This document shows, piece after piece, positions 35,643-54,952 of a DNA stretch of 64,000 nt. This stretch comes from a virus. Its lineage: Duplodnaviria; Caudoviricetes. The notes under the pieces were generated by a model. It worked only from the letters and a program-made list of their open reading frames with translations, was not told the DNA's origin and ran no database searches. The stretch lies in IMG/VR virus record IMGVR_UViG_3300037424_000434, positions 171,766 through 235,765 of that record; one strand, given 5' to 3'. A program made the translations under genes and the position numbers. Positions within the stretch are counted from its first letter, which is position 1. Each line of letters starts with the position of its first letter.

Positions 35643-37939
35643 GTGAATTATATGTCAAAGCATCACGACGAGGTTATTTCGGCGTATGGGTTGAGCACTG
35701 TAACATTTGACCATCTTGCCTTATACACTGTTGGTGTATTTTATTGGGGTGGTAATGGTTCTCCTGTTAGTACATATAAAATATTGGCTGATAAGAAAGA
35801 AGACGCTATTAAATATGTTAATAATAATTTGAAAGTATCTTATCTTCACCGAGTATCAATAATTTCAACAGAACCAAATCCAAACAGGCCAAAACATGCG
35901 TAAGTATGAAATTAAAACAGTGGAAACAAGGTTGCTTATCAGCCTGAAATGTGATATCTGTGGTATGGATATCATAAACTCACCACTTGAAGAACAAGAA
36001 GCAATCTTAATCGCAGATATTGGTGGATATAGTTCCGTGTTTGGTGACGGATGCGAATATCAACTTGATATGTGCCAGCACTGTTTCAAAGAAAAGCTTG
36101 GCCAATATGTGAGAATTTTATGACATGTCCAGAATGTGGTGATATTGTTGTGATAGAGGGATTGTGCAAAGATTGTAGAAATACGATGTTATCTAAACAC
36201 AATTGTACTGATTGTGCGTGTGAATCATATATACAGCCATGTGAAGCATGTGATAATGGATCTTGTAGGGATTCATATTAGCATGATGACAAAAGGAGTT
36301 TAACACTTGGCTAACGGGCTTGTGGCCCAAGGAGGTAGACAGATGAAACCACGGCAAAAAGATCCTTTATGCGTAGAAAAACCGCAACCCGCCGTTGAGT
36401 GCCTTGTTGTGCCCGGTCCAACAACGGCAGAAACAAGCAAATACAAATTCGGCAACATCTCGTGGATTAAGGGTGATCTACAGCAATGTGTTCTTCGGGC
36501 CGCTGTTGATTGGAAAAATTTTCAGTCGGCTGAAAATGCACAGGCTCTCTATATGTCTGTGCTTGCGATGCTTGGGGAAGAACCGGAAAACATACATTTA
36601 CTGGATGGTGAGTCGTAATCAAGGGGAAATCTACAGTGATGTGAGTTTCCAAAGCATACGTGGGTAAAGCATGGGGTATGTTCTTATAGAAACAAGAACC
36701 CAGCAATGGAGCAAAATCAAGGAGTTACAAATGACAGATGATGGATTTTTTGACAGCACGCCACCGGACCCCAAAAGAAAGTTGCGCTTTACCTATACGC
36801 TGTGGTCTTCGACCGGCGCGGGATTTGGTCTAGGTGTCTGGCGCGTCGTTTACTTACCGACAAACGTAATATGGACGATAGCTATTGGCCCGCTGTCGAT
36901 TTATTTACGGTACGTATAGCGATTGTGTTGCTGTAGCATATAACATATTCTAATATATTGAACTAACAAGAAAGGTTGTTATTGATTGAGAACGTTTCTA
37001 CTGCCAAAGGCTAAAGCAATGGCATTGCATTTATCCTCGGAATATCAAGAAGGATATGATTCGCTGGTAACAGAAAATCCTTATGATTTTTTTGATGACG
37101 CGATGAAGCATACTGCATGGTGTTATGGTAAACAAAAGAGAACATTGGAACAAGAAGGGAAGTAATTCTTTCCTGAATTCGTATAATGGTGGTGTATGAT
37201 GGCAGATGATAGTTTAGCCCCTATCCAATTCAAGCATATGACCGTGATAGCAAAACATGATCCCGGTGTTACTGGGAAGTACGAAGAAGGTGAAGTTTTG
37301 TGTGGTTGTGGCCGAGAATTCATGTACTCGATTCAGTATGAAGAAAATTTAAGACAAATTAATGATAGTTTGGTGTTTAGATGTCCTCGATGCTATGCAA
37401 TGAGTCTAGAACAAACCGTTGGACTATTGAGTAAAGAGTGTAGTGAATTGGTGTAAACGAGTAAGATAGGCGGCGATGGTGTAACAGACAGATAATCGTA
37501 CGAGGAGACTCTTATATTATGACTAAATCATTTTGCGGCAAATGTAAATATAGGCAAGGTAGATTCAAGAGTGAATCAAACTGCTCTCATCCCGCAAACA
37601 TCAGAGAGGATGATGATTGGTATGGCGGAGTGAAAATTTATGGAAAATGTCAAATCATAAACAAGGATAATAAATGCCCCAATTTTATGTGGATACCTTC
37701 TATGGACCCGAGGACAAAATATGACTTGGATTAATATTGAAGACCAAGAACCAGAAGAAGATAGAGAGCTGTTCTATTTTTTTGAGCATACTGGTGTATC
37801 CAAAGGCAAGTATCGCCGGACATATTACGACCCCGAAATCTGGGGGGATGGGTTGGGAGATTGTTATATGGATACTTTCTATGGGAGGGGGGGCTTTCTG
37901 TCCGACGATGTGACACACTGGATGTATGTCGATGGACAC
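35643..37939 (+). other. Run of short hypothetical ORFs (35643..35903, 35896..36123, 36307..36618, 37196..37456, 37519..37734), many with CxxC
   Basis: Coupled plus-strand ORFs with RBS-like motifs and no recognisable family. Confidence 0.5.
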
Positions 37940-38023
37940 GATTGGTATCCAGCTCCCCCAAAAGAATTTATTCAGGGAGTAGCAGTAAACGGCCTACCAA
38001 TAAAAGCAGATATGGAAGATTAA
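37721..38023 (+). CDS. Hypothetical protein (DUF551-like W..IEDQEP...DVTHWM)
   Basis: MTWINIEDQEP and DDVTHWMY motifs. Confidence 0.5.
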   Translation: MTWINIEDQEPEEDRELFYFFEHTGVSKGKYRRTYYDPEIWGDGLGDCYMDTFYGRGGFLSDDVTHWMYVDGHDWYPAPPKEFIQGVAVNGLPIKADMED

Positions 38024-38106
38024 GCAATCAGGGTATTGCACCTTCTTGGAAAGGAGTGGGTTCGGCAGAAACGCCGGATAGGATTCGAGTTCCTAGTCTT
38101 CCTCCA
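38014..38106 (+). tRNA. tRNA-Ser(GGA)
   Basis: GGAAGAT/GTCTTCC-T-CCA, TT-GGA-AA, long variable arm. Confidence 0.85.
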
Positions 38107-38150
38107 TATTATATAAAATCAGGCTAAGAGCCTGTAAGGAACAAAATTGC

Positions 38151-38360
38151 ATGTCTAAATTTAAACATTACATAACAGCCCCAACAGATCAAATAGATGA
38201 GGCTACATATGAAGGTAATATAGGATTCGAGGAAATGGTGGATTTTTATAAGAAATCCACTGAATCCGAATACAACAGTATGGAAGATGCTATTTCTAGA
38301 AATGATTGGGTTGCATTTAAAAAACTAATAAAAAGGGTAGTGGGGGTTAATCTAAAATAA
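38151..38360 (+). CDS. Hypothetical protein
   Basis: 69 aa ORF. Confidence 0.5.
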   Translation: MSKFKHYITAPTDQIDEATYEGNIGFEEMVDFYKKSTESEYNSMEDAISRNDWVAFKKLIKRVVGVNLK

Positions 38361-38505
38361 GAATGTCTGAATATATAAGAGTATGTTGTCCCCAATGCGA
38401 CAGCGAAGAAATTGTACCGAAGTATGGAAACATTTTTGAGTGTCGGGATTGCGGGTATGTTGACGAAGAATACATTTTTGAAGATGTTGTTGTAGACGAA
38501 TAAAA

Positions 38506-38581
38506 GGACTTGTAGAACAATTGGCAGTTCGGGGTGCTCATAACACCAAGGTTTCAGGTTCGAGTCCTGACAGGTCCACCA
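38506..38581 (+). tRNA. tRNA(CAT), elongator Met or Ile2
   Basis: Canonical cloverleaf, CT-CAT-AA, CCA. Confidence 0.9.
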
Positions 38582-38589
38582 AATTTTAA

Positions 38590-38944
38590 GGGGTTGTAAA
38601 GGTTTCGACAGTCGTTGGGATGGAGATAACACGTGCAGTAGATGATTGTTGGCTACTTAAAAAATCAATCAAACAGATAAACGCTGAAGATAACTTCGCA
38701 CTAGCGGCATAAGCCGCTTGTCGCTGTGACAACTCCTGATAGTCACTATAGCGGCATCATTAGTCAGGAAAAGCTGACCATGCTTAATGGTATGAAATAC
38801 GGTTTTTTTTGGTTCATATCGCGTCACCGGGGAAGTTATGCTTGGCCGTATTTTCGAGAAAAAAGAGCGCCAAAGGCGAAACGCACGTAATGAATGTTAC
38901 TTTTGAACAATGGTTGGACGTGGGTTCGACTCCCACCAACTCCA
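38590..38944 (+). ncRNA. ssrA: tmRNA, tag (A)AEDNFALAA at 38683-38712
   Basis: 5' GGGGTTGTAAAGGTTTCGAC, 3' GTGGGTTCGACTCCCACCAACTCCA with G3:U70 and A73, tag ending ALAA-stop. Confidence 0.95.
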
Positions 38945-39038
38945 TAATTAATGTGAGCCAAACCATGCGAAGGTGAATAGATACCACTGGATGGGAGCTT
39001 AGGCCGCGCTAAGAAGCCGCGCTAATAAGGATATTATA

Positions 39039-39341
39039 ATGAAATGGCTTCAGTTTGTGATAGATGTTTATTGGCTCGTTATTGCTCTTATGTTTGTATC
39101 ATGCACAGCGAACGCACTTGACGCAACTTTCACCAAAACCTATCAAACATCAAAAGGTACCATAACTTTCAATCACCAATCTCATTCAACATTGGCCGAC
39201 TGTGTTGGGTGTCATGAGGGAGGTAAGTTGTTGGGGGGAGTGGTCAACAAGAACGTGGGGCATAATTATTGCAGGAGTTGTCACCAAAAAATGAACAGCG
39301 ATTTTGCGCCGGTTATTTGTACTGGTTGCCATGTGAGGTAA
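39039..39341 (+). CDS. Periplasmic triheme cytochrome c7 (PpcA-like)
   Basis: Signal peptide ending ANA, G.ITFNHQSH, CVGCH, GHNYCRSCH, CTGCH. Confidence 0.9.
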   Translation: MKWLQFVIDVYWLVIALMFVSCTANALDATFTKTYQTSKGTITFNHQSHSTLADCVGCHEGGKLLGGVVNKNVGHNYCRSCHQKMNSDFAPVICTGCHVR

Positions 39342-39342
39342 G

Positions 39343-39918
39343 ATGAGTTATTTTTTAGATGCTTATTCCATAACCCTCCAACATGAGGGTGGATACGTAA
39401 ATGATCCAGATGATGTTGGGGGTGAGACGTATAAGGGTATTGCACGAGCATACAATCCATCATGGGGTGGTTGGTTCGTTGTGGACGCATTGAGAGGATC
39501 TACTGACTTTCCAGAGTGTTTAACCGATAACAAAACATTACAACTTGATGTAAGGAAATTATACAAATCCAAATATTTTGATCCATACCAAGGTGATGCT
39601 ATGCCCAAAGATTTGGCATTAGAGATGTTCGATACTGCCGTGAACATGGGTGTTGGTCGAGCGGTTACATTCCTCCAAAAAGCACTAAACGTGTTAAACC
39701 GAAATCAATTATTATATCCCGATATGGTGGAAGATGGGGATTATGGACCAACAACCCACAAAGCACTTCAGGTACTATTAAACGAAAATGGCACTGAGGT
39801 ATTGGTAAAAATGCTTAATGTGCTTCAGGGGATGCATTATATTGAGTATATGAACAAATCACCCAAACAGGAAAAATATGCCCGTGGTTGGTTCTCGCGG
39901 GTTCAGATAGGAAAATAA
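39343..39918 (+). CDS. GH108 peptidoglycan hydrolase (endolysin) with PG-binding domain
   Basis: HEGGYVNDPDDVGGETYKGI, FDTAVNMGVGRA, GWFSRV. Confidence 0.92.
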   Translation: MSYFLDAYSITLQHEGGYVNDPDDVGGETYKGIARAYNPSWGGWFVVDALRGSTDFPECLTDNKTLQLDVRKLYKSKYFDPYQGDAMPKDLALEMFDTAVNMGVGRAVTFLQKALNVLNRNQLLYPDMVEDGDYGPTTHKALQVLLNENGTEVLVKMLNVLQGMHYIEYMNKSPKQEKYARGWFSRVQIGK

Positions 39919-40252
39919 TATGAATAAAACTGGTGACAAAAGAATCAATATGGAAACGTATGTACCTGAAGTATATATTTTTGACCGTTGGATTAGTATG
40001 GAATGGGTTAGAGATGTGAAATCTGTGTATATTCTTGATATATATCAAATTCTTGCCAAAGAATTTGGTGAAAAATGGGTAGAAAAGGCAAAAGAATGTA
40101 TCCAAAAATTGGACTGTTGACATAAATAGAAATGACCCGTGAGGTCAAATAAAAAACAGACTTCAGTAACAGTGGATCGCAAAATTAAATGCGCCATATG
40201 CGGGACAGTTTGTAAAACAAGCGCAAAATTCTGCGGAAATTGCGGAACGAAC

Positions 40253-40281
40253 TTGACATATCAATATTAAGAGCGTAAGAT
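40253..40281 (+). promoter_or_regulatory. sigma70-type promoter
   Basis: TTGACA-N17-TAAGAT. Confidence 0.7.
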
Positions 40282-40391
40282 GTAATACATACAATGACGG
40301 TGGCGTAGAACAGGGATACTTCACATGACGAAAAGACACCTTGCTCGTTTGATCCCCTGATTTGTAATTAACATTTTTATAGGAAAAAGGC

Positions 40392-40852
40392 ATGAATGTG
40401 AAACAATTTTTCAGTGTACACGCAGAGTTACAAGCAGTGTTCTTTCGGGATGTTTGTGAGGGATATCTAGCCTCGTTTGTTGTTGTCGTGGGTGTATGTG
40501 GTGTTGTTTTGGAACTATTCAAACAAGCATTTATGTCCTTTACGACAAAATCAATCGAATTTGAGGTTCTACAGGATAAAAAGTATCAAGAAGAAACAGA
40601 CTTTTTGTGTCAAAAACAAAAAGAGATGGATGAACAACAATAAATATATGAGGTAGGTACTACATGATTAAAGCATTTGGTGTTCCACGGTTCAATGGAG
40701 CAGGAAAAACGTATACAGCACCGGCAATGGTCGAGGCTGTTAATGTCCAGCTTGAACGATTGGGTTTAACAGGAAAAGACATAGTTTCGATTCAGATTGA
40801 TGAAGAGTTTTACCATGTGTTTTATGCTGTTCCGGTAAAACCAACAGAATAA
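40392..40852 (+). other. Two small hypothetical ORFs (40392..40643, 40664..40852)
   Basis: RBS-preceded ORFs. Confidence 0.5.
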
Positions 40853-40872
40853 ACCCGACAAGGTGATGAAAC

Positions 40873-40905
40873 AAAGGTAACCTCTAACACGGGGTTACCT
40901 TTTTT
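40873..40905 (+). terminator. Intrinsic terminator
   Basis: AAAGGTAACC...GGTTACCTTT-TTT. Confidence 0.85.
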
Positions 40906-40948
40906 GTTTGGGGATAACTATATGATAGCAGTACAGGGAGGTTATTTT

Positions 40949-41407
40949 ATGATGAAAATAGCATTTTATAGGGCCAGCGCCGGTAACATGTTTGATAAAG
41001 CCATAAACCTGTGGACAGGCATGTATGGATATTCTCATGTGGAGTTGGTATTTTCTGATGGAGTAAGCTTTTCCGCTTCATCCAGAGATAATCTAGTGAG
41101 ATTTGCGCGTATTAATTTTGTTCCAGACAGGTGGGAGTTTGTTGAACTACCGCTATTTAACAAAATAGACGAGGCAAAAATAAGAGCGCAAGCCGAAAAC
41201 TTAGCGGGAAGGAAATATGATTGGAAAGGCATTTTTCTTTGGATGTTTTTGCCTCTCAAAAAACAAGACAATGATAGATGGTGGTGTTCTGAGATTGTTT
41301 CTTTTTTATTAAAAGAGTCTAATTATAGAGTACATCCAAATAAAATGGCAAAACAGTGGAAGGTTGCTAGACAACCATGGCACATTAGTATATCATTTAT
41401 GAAATAA
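40949..41407 (+). CDS. Permuted papain-like NlpC/P60 enzyme (YaeF/YiiX-like)
   Basis: YSHVELV (His) before GRKYD and WWCSEIV (Cys). Confidence 0.75.
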   Translation: MMKIAFYRASAGNMFDKAINLWTGMYGYSHVELVFSDGVSFSASSRDNLVRFARINFVPDRWEFVELPLFNKIDEAKIRAQAENLAGRKYDWKGIFLWMFLPLKKQDNDRWWCSEIVSFLLKESNYRVHPNKMAKQWKVARQPWHISISFMK

Positions 41408-41416
41408 TAATGTGAT

Positions 41417-41890
41417 ATGTGGGAGGGCTGTATGGATATTAGGTCTGACGGGAAATACCCAGCAAATAAATTATCCAATTTTGCTGGACATGGGTTTAAC
41501 CTTGATGGTGTGGAAATTTCGTCTCTTGAGGGATTTCTTCAAAGTTTAAAATTTTCTAATCCAGATATGCAAGAAGAGGTGTGTGGGTTGGTTGGGTATG
41601 CCGCTAAAATAAAAGGCAAAGACAAGAACTGGCGTAGACGACAAATATTGTATTGGAGAGGATGTGAAATTAAAAGGAATAGTCAAGTATACCAAGATTT
41701 ATTGGATCGAGCCTACATGGCATGTGCTACCCAGAGTGAGGGATTTAGGCGCGCATTGATTGCTTCTGGTACGGGATTGCTGACTCCTTCTATTGGAAGA
41801 AGAAAATCCAATGAGACTATCTTGACAACATCAGAGTTTTGTTCTAGACTCATGAGATTACGTGAGCAAATAAGAAACGGGGAAATATAA
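41417..41890 (+). CDS. T4 gp30.3-like NADAR-family protein
   Basis: LSNFAGHGFNLDG...SLEGFLQSLKF, ILYWRG, FRRALIAS, TILTTSEF. Confidence 0.75.
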   Translation: MWEGCMDIRSDGKYPANKLSNFAGHGFNLDGVEISSLEGFLQSLKFSNPDMQEEVCGLVGYAAKIKGKDKNWRRRQILYWRGCEIKRNSQVYQDLLDRAYMACATQSEGFRRALIASGTGLLTPSIGRRKSNETILTTSEFCSRLMRLREQIRNGEI

Positions 41891-42630
41891 TGATTGGAAT
41901 AGAAACTAGACCGGATGATCTGAAAAAGTATTTGGATTCTGATTATCCGTTGTTGGACCGATTTAAAGCACTGGCACCGGGAACGTTTAGACATTCCCAA
42001 AATGTTGCAGCATTAACAGAAGCGATTGCCTCGGACTTGGGGCTGGATGTTACCTTGATGAGAGTGGCAGCCACTTATCATGATATAGGTAAAACCGTTA
42101 ATCCCATGTATTTTACGGAGAACCAGAACGGGGAAGCAAACCCCCATGATTTACTTGAACCCTTTGTTTCATATCAATTCATTACCCGCCATGTGGCCGA
42201 TGGAGTGTTTATCCTGACTAACGAGACCGATATGCCACGACAGGTTTTGCAGATCATTTCTGAGCACCACGGCGATACTGTGTTGAAAGCTATTTTCAAC
42301 AAAGCCGTCACCCAGAATATTGATAACTTTCGATACAAAGCACCAAAACCATCCAATGAATATTCGAGTATTTTGATGATTGCTGATACAGTAGAAGCAA
42401 CAGCACGAAGCATTTCGGACAAACTAACAACACCAGAAGAGAAGATAAGAGTGGTAAAAGACACTATTGAGAGGTTGAGGGATGACAAGCAACTTGATGA
42501 AATGAAGGTTGGAACCCTCAGACAGGTGCAAAACAGGCTCATACGGGAGCTTGATGGAATTTATCATACTCGTATTGATTATGATGGAGAAGTACAAAAA
42601 AACCAACTAAAAAGTGAGGTAACAAAGTGA
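41890..42630 (+). CDS. Stand-alone HD(IG) phosphohydrolase resembling the HD domain of 7TM-HD/PgpH
   Basis: APGTFRHS..VA, YHDIGK..NPMYFTENQ, NPHD, HVADG, EHHGD, FRY..PKP, MIADTVEA. Confidence 0.85.
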   Translation: MIGIETRPDDLKKYLDSDYPLLDRFKALAPGTFRHSQNVAALTEAIASDLGLDVTLMRVAATYHDIGKTVNPMYFTENQNGEANPHDLLEPFVSYQFITRHVADGVFILTNETDMPRQVLQIISEHHGDTVLKAIFNKAVTQNIDNFRYKAPKPSNEYSSILMIADTVEATARSISDKLTTPEEKIRVVKDTIERLRDDKQLDEMKVGTLRQVQNRLIRELDGIYHTRIDYDGEVQKNQLKSEVTK

Positions 42631-44735: not shown

Positions 44736-45101
<366 letters not shown>

Positions 45102-53454: not shown

Positions 53455-54952
53455 GTGAAAGACAAAATTATGACAATAATAACCGAGTATGCAGAAAGAA
53501 CAGCGTTTGCGGATGATCAAGCAAAAGACGATTACATTAACATGGTAGAAAAATGGTGTAACATCATTTCAGACGCTGCTGGTAAAGTATCAGTGGGGGT
53601 GGTGTATACCGATAAATACAATGGCGGTGCCGACAACGAACCACTGAGATACGCTTATAATGGTGACTCGGGTTTCGATCTTAGGGCAGAAACAAATGAT
53701 GCCGGGGGATATGAGATTGCTCCAAAAGGGACAGTTGTTATCCCGGTTGGCATCAAAGTGGCGGTCCCGAAAGGCACCGAGCTTCAGGTTAGAACACGCT
53801 CAGGATCTCCCGTCAAAAAGGGATTTTTTGTAGCAAACTCTCCGGGAACGGTAAACTAAAATCCCAAAAAATCAATCGTTCCTATTTATTTTTATAAATA
53901 CTTGTAGAATGAATGGGGGGATTGATATGATAGCAAAATGTTTAATATGTAATAAAGAATTGGATGTATGGCCTAGTAGGGCAAAGAAATTCAAAACCTG
54001 TAGCATGAAATGTCTTGCCGAGTATTTTAAAGACGATAATAATACTATATGTAAGACTTGTGGTAAAGAATTTCATTTAAAACCTTATAGGAAAAAAAGA
54101 TCACAGGATAATTTTTGTTCTGTGGGGTGTTTTGCCAGTTGGAAAAGTGAAAGCCAACGAGGATGCAATAACCCCAATTTTAGAAACAGACTATATGGTG
54201 GAGATGGTATGAAGATTTTACATATACCGTCAATAGGTAGTGTTAAAGAACACCGATTTGTTGCTGAATCAATATTAGGTGAGATACCAAAAGGACTTAA
54301 TGTTCATCATAGAGACTGCAATCCTATAAACAATGTTCCCGAAAATCTAGTAGTGCTGTGTCCTAAAGACCATAGGTGGATACATAAACAATTCGGAAAT
54401 GCTACATTATACGCATATTATTACAACAAGATAGATAAAGAATCATTGATATCTTGGTCTAACGATAAAGATAGAGCAGAAAGATTGTTAGACTTGAACA
54501 TTTTGAATCAAAAACTGCCGTTATAAAATTGGGTGAATTCAGGGGAAGTCCAGAAGTGGATAATCCTGAGCCAAGCCCCACGAATTAACAGATTAGTAGT
54601 GGGGAAGGTGCAACGCATAGAAGGTGAGGATGTTATACCAATAACCCTTCCACGAGCGCCCGACAATAGAAATATTGAAGATGTATGCTGGACATGCACA
54701 TATAACTTGACAATGAAAGTGCAGAACTATGGGATAAAAAGCCCGTAGGATAACAAACGAGATAGTGGGTATAGGGGAGTTGTTGGTGTTATTTGTCATA
54801 ATCTATCAGACGAACTTGTCACCATAGAGTGTGGCGAAAGAATTGCCCAAGGTGTTATTTGTCCGGTGTATCAAGCTGTTTTTACACAGGTAGAAGATCT
54901 TGGTGTTACAGAAAGGGGCGATGGTGCCTATAATTCCACGGGAGTACAATGA
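53455..54952 (+). CDS. dut: dUTPase interrupted by a group I intron (exon 1 53455-53852, exon 2 54760-54952)
   Basis: DSGFDL, RTRSG, NSPGT(V) joined to DSGYRG...GERIAQGVI...RGDGAYNSTG. The join GT|A restores motif III. Confidence 0.92.
53853..54759 (+). mobile_element. Group I intron
   Basis: Exon ends in U and intron ends in G. P1 AACGGU/GCCGUU (54517-54522) has U.G at the junction. P3 TTGGGTG/CGCCCGA, P/Q GAATTCAGGGGAA and AATCCTGAGCCAAGC, P7 GCATA/TATGC. Confidence 0.9.
53927..54526 (+). CDS. Intron-encoded HNH homing endonuclease
   Basis: CxxC repeats, EHRFVAE, VHHRDCNPINNVPENL; late promoter TATAAATA at 53893. Confidence 0.88.
   Translation: MIAKCLICNKELDVWPSRAKKFKTCSMKCLAEYFKDDNNTICKTCGKEFHLKPYRKKRSQDNFCSVGCFASWKSESQRGCNNPNFRNRLYGGDGMKILHIPSIGSVKEHRFVAESILGEIPKGLNVHHRDCNPINNVPENLVVLCPKDHRWIHKQFGNATLYAYYYNKIDKESLISWSNDKDRAERLLDLNILNQKLPL

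Follow-up and report, generated by a model that had tools for sequence, protein, structure and literature searches.

A predicted triheme cytochrome c7 encoded beside the endolysin gene in a T4-like jumbo phage from sediment and its relatives

Cytochromes c7 are small secreted proteins with which bacteria that respire metals and sulfur carry electrons through the periplasm, and both dissimilatory reduction of metals and sulfur and extracellular electron transfer depend centrally on them. Among the proteins with PDB entries, the closest to the one described here are cytochrome c7 (c551.5) of Desulfuromonas acetoxidans (1EHJ, 1HH5, and 1NEW) and, at a greater distance, PpcA to PpcE of Geobacter sulfurreducens (1OS6, 3BXU, 3H33, 3H4N, and 3H34). 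Cytochromes of the c7 and c3 types, such as D. acetoxidans c7 and Desulfovibrio c3, are known to act promiscuously, reducing Fe(III), Cr(VI), and U(VI) as well as sulfur. As for viruses, cyanophages carry plastocyanin and ferredoxin genes as auxiliary electron carriers, and a NapC/NirT multiheme cytochrome c has been listed as an auxiliary gene of the amoC-phages (10.64898/2026.06.18.733297). No description of a phage-encoded cytochrome c7 was found in the literature searched.

We analyzed a putative c7 gene in a 64,000-nucleotide stretch of phage DNA (here called the window), which is the final 64 kb of a 235,765-bp virus record with a CheckV completeness of 98%.

The c7 gene, its product, and its viral setting

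The gene sits 25 kb from the end of the virus record, in surroundings that include 27 tRNA genes, a tmRNA, an endolysin gene, a homolog of T4 gp30.3 (E value, 3e-50), an HD protein gene, and a DNA ligase-like gene. The features of the locus are as follows.

38590 to 38947, + strand: phage tmRNA upstream of c7 (Rfam, 122 bits; ARAGORN tag AEDNFALAA)
39028 to 39031, + strand: Shine-Dalgarno AGGA, 7 nt 5' of the c7 ATG (read from the sequence)
39039 to 39341, + strand: predicted cytochrome c7 gene, 100 amino acids plus stop (ORF list, Pfam, phmmer against the PDB, c7 fold)
39039 to 39116, + strand: signal peptide of c7, amino acids 1 to 26, with a predicted signal peptidase I cut after A-N-A (before L-D)
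39174 to 39185, + strand: distal histidines H46-x-x-H49, aligned with H17 and H20 of the D. acetoxidans protein (1EHJ alignment)
39201 to 39215, + strand: heme motif 1, C55-x-x-C58-H59 (motif scan, 1EHJ alignment, homolog alignment)
39261 to 39284, + strand: distal H75 plus heme motif 2, C78-x-x-C81-H82 (gap placed by HMMER against PpcC)
39318 to 39332, + strand: heme motif 3, C94-x-x-C97-H98 (motif scan, 1EHJ alignment, homolog alignment)
39343 to 39918, + strand: GH108 plus PG_binding_3 endolysin gene, starting 1 nt after the c7 stop
40873 to 40902, + strand: intrinsic-terminator-like hairpin with a 12-bp stem and a T run, the first strong one downstream (consensus scan only)

The first-pass annotation had placed the gene in a viral context between a tmRNA and an endolysin gene, and this was borne out by the tmRNA and the GH108 endolysin gene that flank it. 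It had also left room for a chimeric host insert. This was ruled out, since an independently built 17.6-kb contig spans the locus, covering positions 37000 to 42000 with zero differences. Identical pieces bridging the end of the tmRNA and c7 were recovered from two other sediment runs. Of the runs listed as containing this DNA, none was an RNA run. The GC content of c7 was 42.6%, versus 39.0% for the whole genome. An overlapping Rfam match to a permuted tmRNA at 38523 to 38712, made up of a tRNA-Met and the 5' part of the tmRNA, is probably an artifact.

The ribosome-binding site of the endolysin gene (GAGG, 39335 to 39338) lies inside the c7 gene, and the hairpin at 40873 to 40902 is the probable end of the transcription unit. 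Neither a sigma-70-like promoter nor a T4 late promoter (TATAAATA) was found just upstream of c7. Downstream of the endolysin gene, the ORF at 40392 to 40643 encodes 83 amino acids with a charged C-terminal tail and may be considered a holin candidate; it has a weak homolog in the related contig L010 and no PHROG match. Two further elements were recorded in the window, namely, a 167-aa ORF (40904 to 41407) matching phrog_1128 with an E value of 1.3e-29 (enoyl-CoA hydratase/carnithine racemase-like; moron/AMG) and no Pfam family, and a group I intron at 54449 to 54691 (RF00028 in Rfam, 58.2 bits over the whole length of the model).

Multiple CxxCH motifs occur in just one six-frame ORF of at least 60 amino acids in the 235,765-bp genome, namely, that of c7, so the heme motif pattern is not attributable to chance. 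The histidines of c7 are those at positions 46, 49, 59, 75, 82, and 98, with no others. The predicted mature protein has 74 residues, with a mass of 8.0 kDa as the apoprotein and about 9.9 kDa with three hemes, a pI of 8.6, and a net charge of about +3.

The signal peptide was assigned by inspection, together with the helix of an AF2 model and a conserved AxA/VxA motif. Thus, the N terminus forms a hydrophobic helix at residues 2 to 23 of the model, followed by A-N-A at 24 to 26, and all aligned c7 homologs have cleavable-looking signals with AxA/VxA conserved before the mature domain. In the window protein, the signal peptide departs from the usual type in having a single Lys and, at position 9, an Asp. 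The precursor is predicted to be exported by Sec to the periplasm with an ordinary cleavable signal. A lipobox-like F-V-S-C22 was also considered, and processing as a lipoprotein was rejected, given that Cys22 is not conserved and the AxA site is. The secreted-type triheme ORF of the first-pass annotation, with its signal peptide, three CxxCH motifs, and mature protein of about 74 residues at 39039 to 39341, was thus confirmed, and the two motifs that it quoted (G.ITFNHxxH and xHxxCxxCH) are both present in the protein.

As regards family, the protein scored 24.5 bits with Pfam Cytochrom_CIII (PF02085), above the cutoff of 22.9, and 23.1 bits with Cytochrome_C7 (PF14522), which is 1.7 bits under the cutoff of 24.8. 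The two families belong to the same clan, and the PF14522 cutoff is passed by the phage relatives L005, L010, and L011. In phmmer searches of the PDB, the best match was D. acetoxidans c7 (1EHJ; E value, 1.8e-10; residues 33 to 100 against 4 to 68), followed by PpcC (1.1e-7), PpcB (7e-7), and PpcA (4e-5), with PpcD and PpcE also matched and the tetraheme c3 proteins giving partial matches only. The six cysteines and six histidines align with the heme ligands of D. acetoxidans c7, where H46, H49, H59, H75, H82, and H98 correspond to H17, H20, H30, H45, H53, and H66, respectively, H75 being shifted by one residue.

The AF2 model, built from 24 homologs, reached a pLDDT of 87 and contains strands at 32 to 37 and 40 to 45 followed by helices. 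Foldseek searches of the PDB with this model gave TM scores (by target) of 0.68 to 0.74 to PpcA to PpcE and D. acetoxidans c7, with a probability of 1.00, and the top 23 matches were nearly all c7 structures. The top two matches among the Swiss-Prot models were the c7 proteins of G. metallireducens and D. acetoxidans, and a protein language-model atlas returned c7/c3 clusters only, most often from Thermodesulfobacteriota. On alignment and modeling grounds, the ORF is predicted to encode a cytochrome c7 of canonical type; it has three CxxCH motifs and six histidines as putative axial ligands, and its model adopts the c7 fold. The assignment to the cytochrome c7/PpcA-type family made in the first-pass annotation is therefore supported by sequence and fold, as well as by the synteny described below.

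Conservation among related phages and possible origin

A HMMER search of 1.84 billion representative proteins yielded 213 c7 matches, the best two with 56% and 50% identity to the window protein, and the nearest homologs (38 to 56% identity) are encoded on phage contigs. In eight loci, found on independent metagenome contigs, c7 lies directly 5' of an orthologous endolysin gene. Thus, the phage-like contigs of P0001 (L002/L003), P0002 (L004), P0007, P0008 (L006/L007), and P0010/P0151 (L008/L009) all show c7 followed by a GH108 plus PG_binding_3 endolysin gene, with neighbors that include ThyX, gp30.3, HD, gp32, HNH, and S-AdoMet lyase genes, and the same c7-endolysin order was observed in the IMG/VR contigs L010 and L011. 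An orthologous tmRNA also precedes c7 in L002 and L010. In total, c7 was recovered in twelve distinct sequences with a phage context, drawn from roughly a dozen accessions of samples or runs. The cytochrome gene is thus carried not only by the T4-like jumbo phage of the window but by a whole clade of phages related to it.

The endolysins encoded after c7 in L002, L004, L006, L008, L010, and L011 are 63 to 68% identical to that of the window. Similar values were obtained for gp30.3 (about 73%), the HD protein (about 70%), and ThyX (63%), whereas c7 shared only 38 to 48% identity with its counterparts in these relatives. In the alignment of 24 homologs, the mean column identity was 36%, but H46, H49, C55, C58, H59, H75, C78, C81, H82, and H98 were invariant, and C94 and C97 were kept in at least 90% of the sequences. 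Such a pattern would be expected of a functional multiheme cytochrome selected mainly for heme geometry. The net charge of the phage proteins spans from -2 to +9. Near-identical contig pairs had zero substitutions in c7 and were thus uninformative for dN/dS.

Not all phage cytochromes of this kind lie next to an endolysin gene. In L005, L012, L097, and L109, all of them phage contexts, a c7 or c3-type cytochrome gene was found without one. The c7 gene of L097 shares its 90-kb contig with NAMPT and PAAR genes, while L012 (3947 to 4288) encodes, in a different neighborhood, a 113-aa secreted tetraheme protein of the c3 type, with four CxxCH motifs and a Cytochrom_CIII score of 44 bits. In L006/L007 and L109, c7 is immediately preceded by a gene for a class I monoheme cytochrome c (9674 to 9991 in L006 and 4376 to 4693 in L109), whose 105-aa product has a signal peptide and one CxxCH motif and scores 31.1 bits with Pfam Cytochrome_CBB3, over the cutoff. 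This monoheme cytochrome had no PDB match and no PHROG match. Where the GH108 endolysin was more remote (identity of 54% or less; 80 IMG/VR loci), no ORF within 3 kb had multiple CxxCH motifs.

Two features of the relatives lie outside the c7-endolysin block. L002, the closest c7-bearing relative, contains a full-length GOLLD RNA at 1474 to 1918 (RF02032, 168.8 bits), which is situated upstream of the tmRNA of that contig at a distance of about 6 kb. Upstream of the c7 and endolysin genes, L006 (1 to 9400) and L008 (1 to 9750) carry a cluster of radical SAM, aminotransferase, epimerase, PIG-L, deacetylase, and glycosyltransferase genes, perhaps for sugar or DNA modification; the window has no such cluster at that position.

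A profile search of 5.8 billion proteins revealed about 70 further metagenomic c7 clusters that outscore every named bacterial protein, some of them on contigs of 114 to 240 kb. The first named matches in this search came from Desulfuromonas, Desulfuromonadaceae, and Trichloromonas. Trees of the c7 domain comprised 72 to 75 columns and are thus weakly resolved. In a 148-row tree, 10 of the 11 phage-context sequences fell in one clade (SH-aLRT, 93), and a 37-row tree gave a similar phage clade (UFBoot/SH-aLRT, 94/88), with the phage-context row P0055 outside it. Within this clade, the window protein pairs with P0001, and the sister of the pair (88/82) is a small group to which PLX81709.1 and PLX98046.1 belong. 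Both of these proteins are encoded on chromosomes of Desulfuromonas MAGs, by genes with pheT, sigma-70, surE, and IMPDH genes as neighbors and 50 to 54% GC, and the rows that branch next are again MAG proteins of Desulfuromonas or Desulfuromonadaceae. One Desulfuromonas MAG encodes at least three c7 paralogs, with 36 to 43% identity to the phage protein.

These relationships point to Desulfuromonadales as donor, recipient, or host of the phage c7; the link is a moderate one, since few of the metagenomic proteins are named and the identities are low. As the host, a sediment bacterium with c-type cytochromes of its own seems probable, and it may belong to Desulfuromonadales. When the tmRNA was compared by blastn with 401 genomes of the phylum of a Desulfuromonas MAG, essentially only the universal 3' end (positions 327 to 355) was matched. 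Similarly, a search with 20 kb of the 236-kb genome against 233 genomes of the MAG's order gave no spacer-like match, and returned weak gene homologies and a low-complexity (CCAGAA)n Pro-Glu repeat only. The repeat (44858 to 44978), which forms part of a 121-aa low-complexity ORF (44736 to 45101) of Pro-Glu and Pro-Asp-Gln-Lys units, gave spurious DNA matches of 88 to 100% in more than 30 Desulfuromonadales genomes and was rejected as a host signal. The c7 gene had been put forward in the first-pass annotation as the best host clue in the window. This holds insofar as the nearest named cellular relatives are c7 proteins of Desulfuromonas MAGs, at the identities given above and with moderate branch support, but the clue is not decisive, and the tmRNA and DNA/spacer searches produced no independent link to a host.

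Possible roles of the phage cytochrome

The reading that we prefer, at somewhat better than even confidence, is that c7 would be an auxiliary respiratory gene whose product joins the periplasmic carrier pool of the host. The gene would be transcribed together with that of the endolysin, as suggested by the 1-nt gap between them, the endolysin GAGG inside c7, and the position of the first strong terminator-like hairpin at 40873 to 40902. The precursor would be exported by Sec and cleaved after Ala26, and its three hemes would be attached by the host's own cytochrome c maturation system (Ccm or Ccs), given that no cytochrome maturation gene (Cytochrom_C_asm) was found in the phage genome by a profile search that is insensitive. 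Indeed, the corresponding search with Pfam PF14522 missed c7 itself, so that the negative results for both Cytochrom_C_asm and Phage_holin_T are weak. The soluble protein of about 10 kDa would then enter the pool of small periplasmic multiheme carriers, which relay electrons received from quinol oxidases of the inner membrane to acceptors in the periplasm or outer membrane. In this way, anaerobic respiration, membrane potential, and ATP could be kept up after the phage shuts down host gene expression.

This auxiliary-gene reading is a plausible one that fits all the observations, and the conservation of c7 across the phage clade strengthens it. The monoheme-c7 tandems, the tetraheme gene of L012, and the NapC/NirT cytochrome known as phage cargo also speak for a respiratory role. 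The work of Choi et al. (2022), as cited in 10.1101/2025.11.06.686851, suggests that a c7 of foreign origin might be accommodated. Counting against a respiratory role, the position of c7 beside a lysis gene may mean late expression, at a stage when boosting respiration would be of less use, and the atypical signal peptide and the subthreshold Cytochrome_C7 score count against this reading as well.

That same position underlies the main, though unlikely, alternative, in which a secreted cytochrome of the lysis cassette would report or control how reduced and how energized the envelope is; respiration would thereby be tied to the triggering of the holin or the action of the endolysin, or the membrane potential would simply be held until programmed lysis. 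The location of c7 immediately upstream of an orthologous GH108 endolysin gene in eight loci speaks for it, as do, in the window, the single nucleotide between the two genes and the endolysin ribosome-binding site within c7. An 83-aa ORF with a single hydrophobic segment (40392 to 40643) precedes the first terminator-like hairpin, and no T4-type holin was detected elsewhere by the insensitive Phage_holin_T search. However, c7 has no similarity to holins, antiholins, or spanins, giving no match in PHROGs and matching only cytochrome families in Pfam, and no retained membrane anchor was seen, its N-terminal segment being followed by the conserved AxA motif. The four phage contexts that carry a cytochrome gene without an adjacent endolysin gene also argue against a lysis function, and the shared block of a 69-aa ORF, c7, and endolysin could be explained by common descent. 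In T4, the lysozyme gene e borders the tRNA region, which is a hot spot of accessory genes. Taken together, the monoheme-c7 tandems and the c7 genes away from endolysin genes favor a carrier over a lysis protein.

Both ideas could be joined if, as a matter of speculation, late upkeep of the membrane potential by c7 prevented premature holin triggering. In a broader and rather improbable version, a phage lineage with its own set of periplasmic carriers (c7, sometimes together with a monoheme cytochrome c), cotranscribed with lysis genes, would power an anaerobic respirer and couple lysis to its respiratory state, with c7 being exchanged with Desulfuromonas chromosomes. If this were true, such exchange would make phages a vehicle that diversifies the cytochromes of extracellular electron transfer.

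We also regard as rather doubtful a periplasmic redox job other than respiration, be it the reduction or detoxification of metals, sulfur, or oxidants or an electron sink serving takeover or exclusion. The charge range of the phage proteins argues against one fixed partner, and the promiscuous reductase activity of c7 and c3 cytochromes would suit such a job; however, no data point specifically to it, and the tandem of monoheme cytochrome c and c7 in the relatives resembles a carrier chain. Finally, a misassembled host fragment or a decaying, nonfunctional acquisition is hardly credible. It is hinted at only by the atypical signal peptide and by c7 having diverged faster than the neighboring genes, against which stand the independent contig and the bridging pieces from two runs, a gene order shared by eight or more independent metagenome contigs, the intact frame, the conserved heme-binding residues, and a GC content matching that of the phage.

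Relation to known electron carriers

The protein is a new member of a known family, in a setting, a virus, that appears to be undescribed in print. Searches of 50,697 GenBank phage records gave no c7 homolog by tblastn with the protein and no match by megablast with 8 kb of the locus. PHROGs v4 contained no c7, and BFVD no c7-like fold; a word-indexed protein search and a pattern search of IMG/VR, both with the single c7 sequence, gave no candidates. A conserved phage c7 would extend the range of auxiliary metabolic genes to anaerobic periplasmic electron transfer and suggests a viral influence on the cycling of iron, sulfur, and metals in sediments beyond the killing of cells. In addition, the phage set provides naturally diverged, very small variants (38 to 56% identity; charge, -2 to +9) with which the sequence tolerance of the family could be probed.

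When compared with D. acetoxidans c7, the window protein is alike in length, in its three CxxCH motifs, and in the positions of the six axial histidines, and has the same fold (TM score, 0.68 to 0.76) at about 30 to 34% identity, but it is encoded by a phage. The two also differ in the distal histidine of the last heme, which stands as H-x-x-C before motif 2 in the window protein and as H-x-x-x-C in D. acetoxidans c7 and PpcA. The shorter spacing is common to the whole subfamily of the window protein, including the Desulfuromonas MAG proteins. PpcA to PpcE share its family and fold (E values, 1e-7 to 4e-5; TM score, 0.68 to 0.74) and are likewise secreted small soluble carriers, although they are more distant than D. 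acetoxidans c7. The window protein is less basic than they are, and a part for it in extracellular electron transfer would be conjecture. The nearest named cellular relatives, the Desulfuromonas paralogs PLX81709.1 and PLX98046.1 (MAG GCA_002869615.1), lie among housekeeping genes and not in phage DNA.

Among viral systems, cyanophage plastocyanin and ferredoxin are likewise host-type electron transfer proteins carried by phages and are presumed to sustain host energy metabolism, but the phage c7 differs from them in belonging to another protein family and to an anaerobic, periplasmic, multiheme physiology. The NapC/NirT cytochrome of the amoC-phages, also of a different family, is its nearest precedent.
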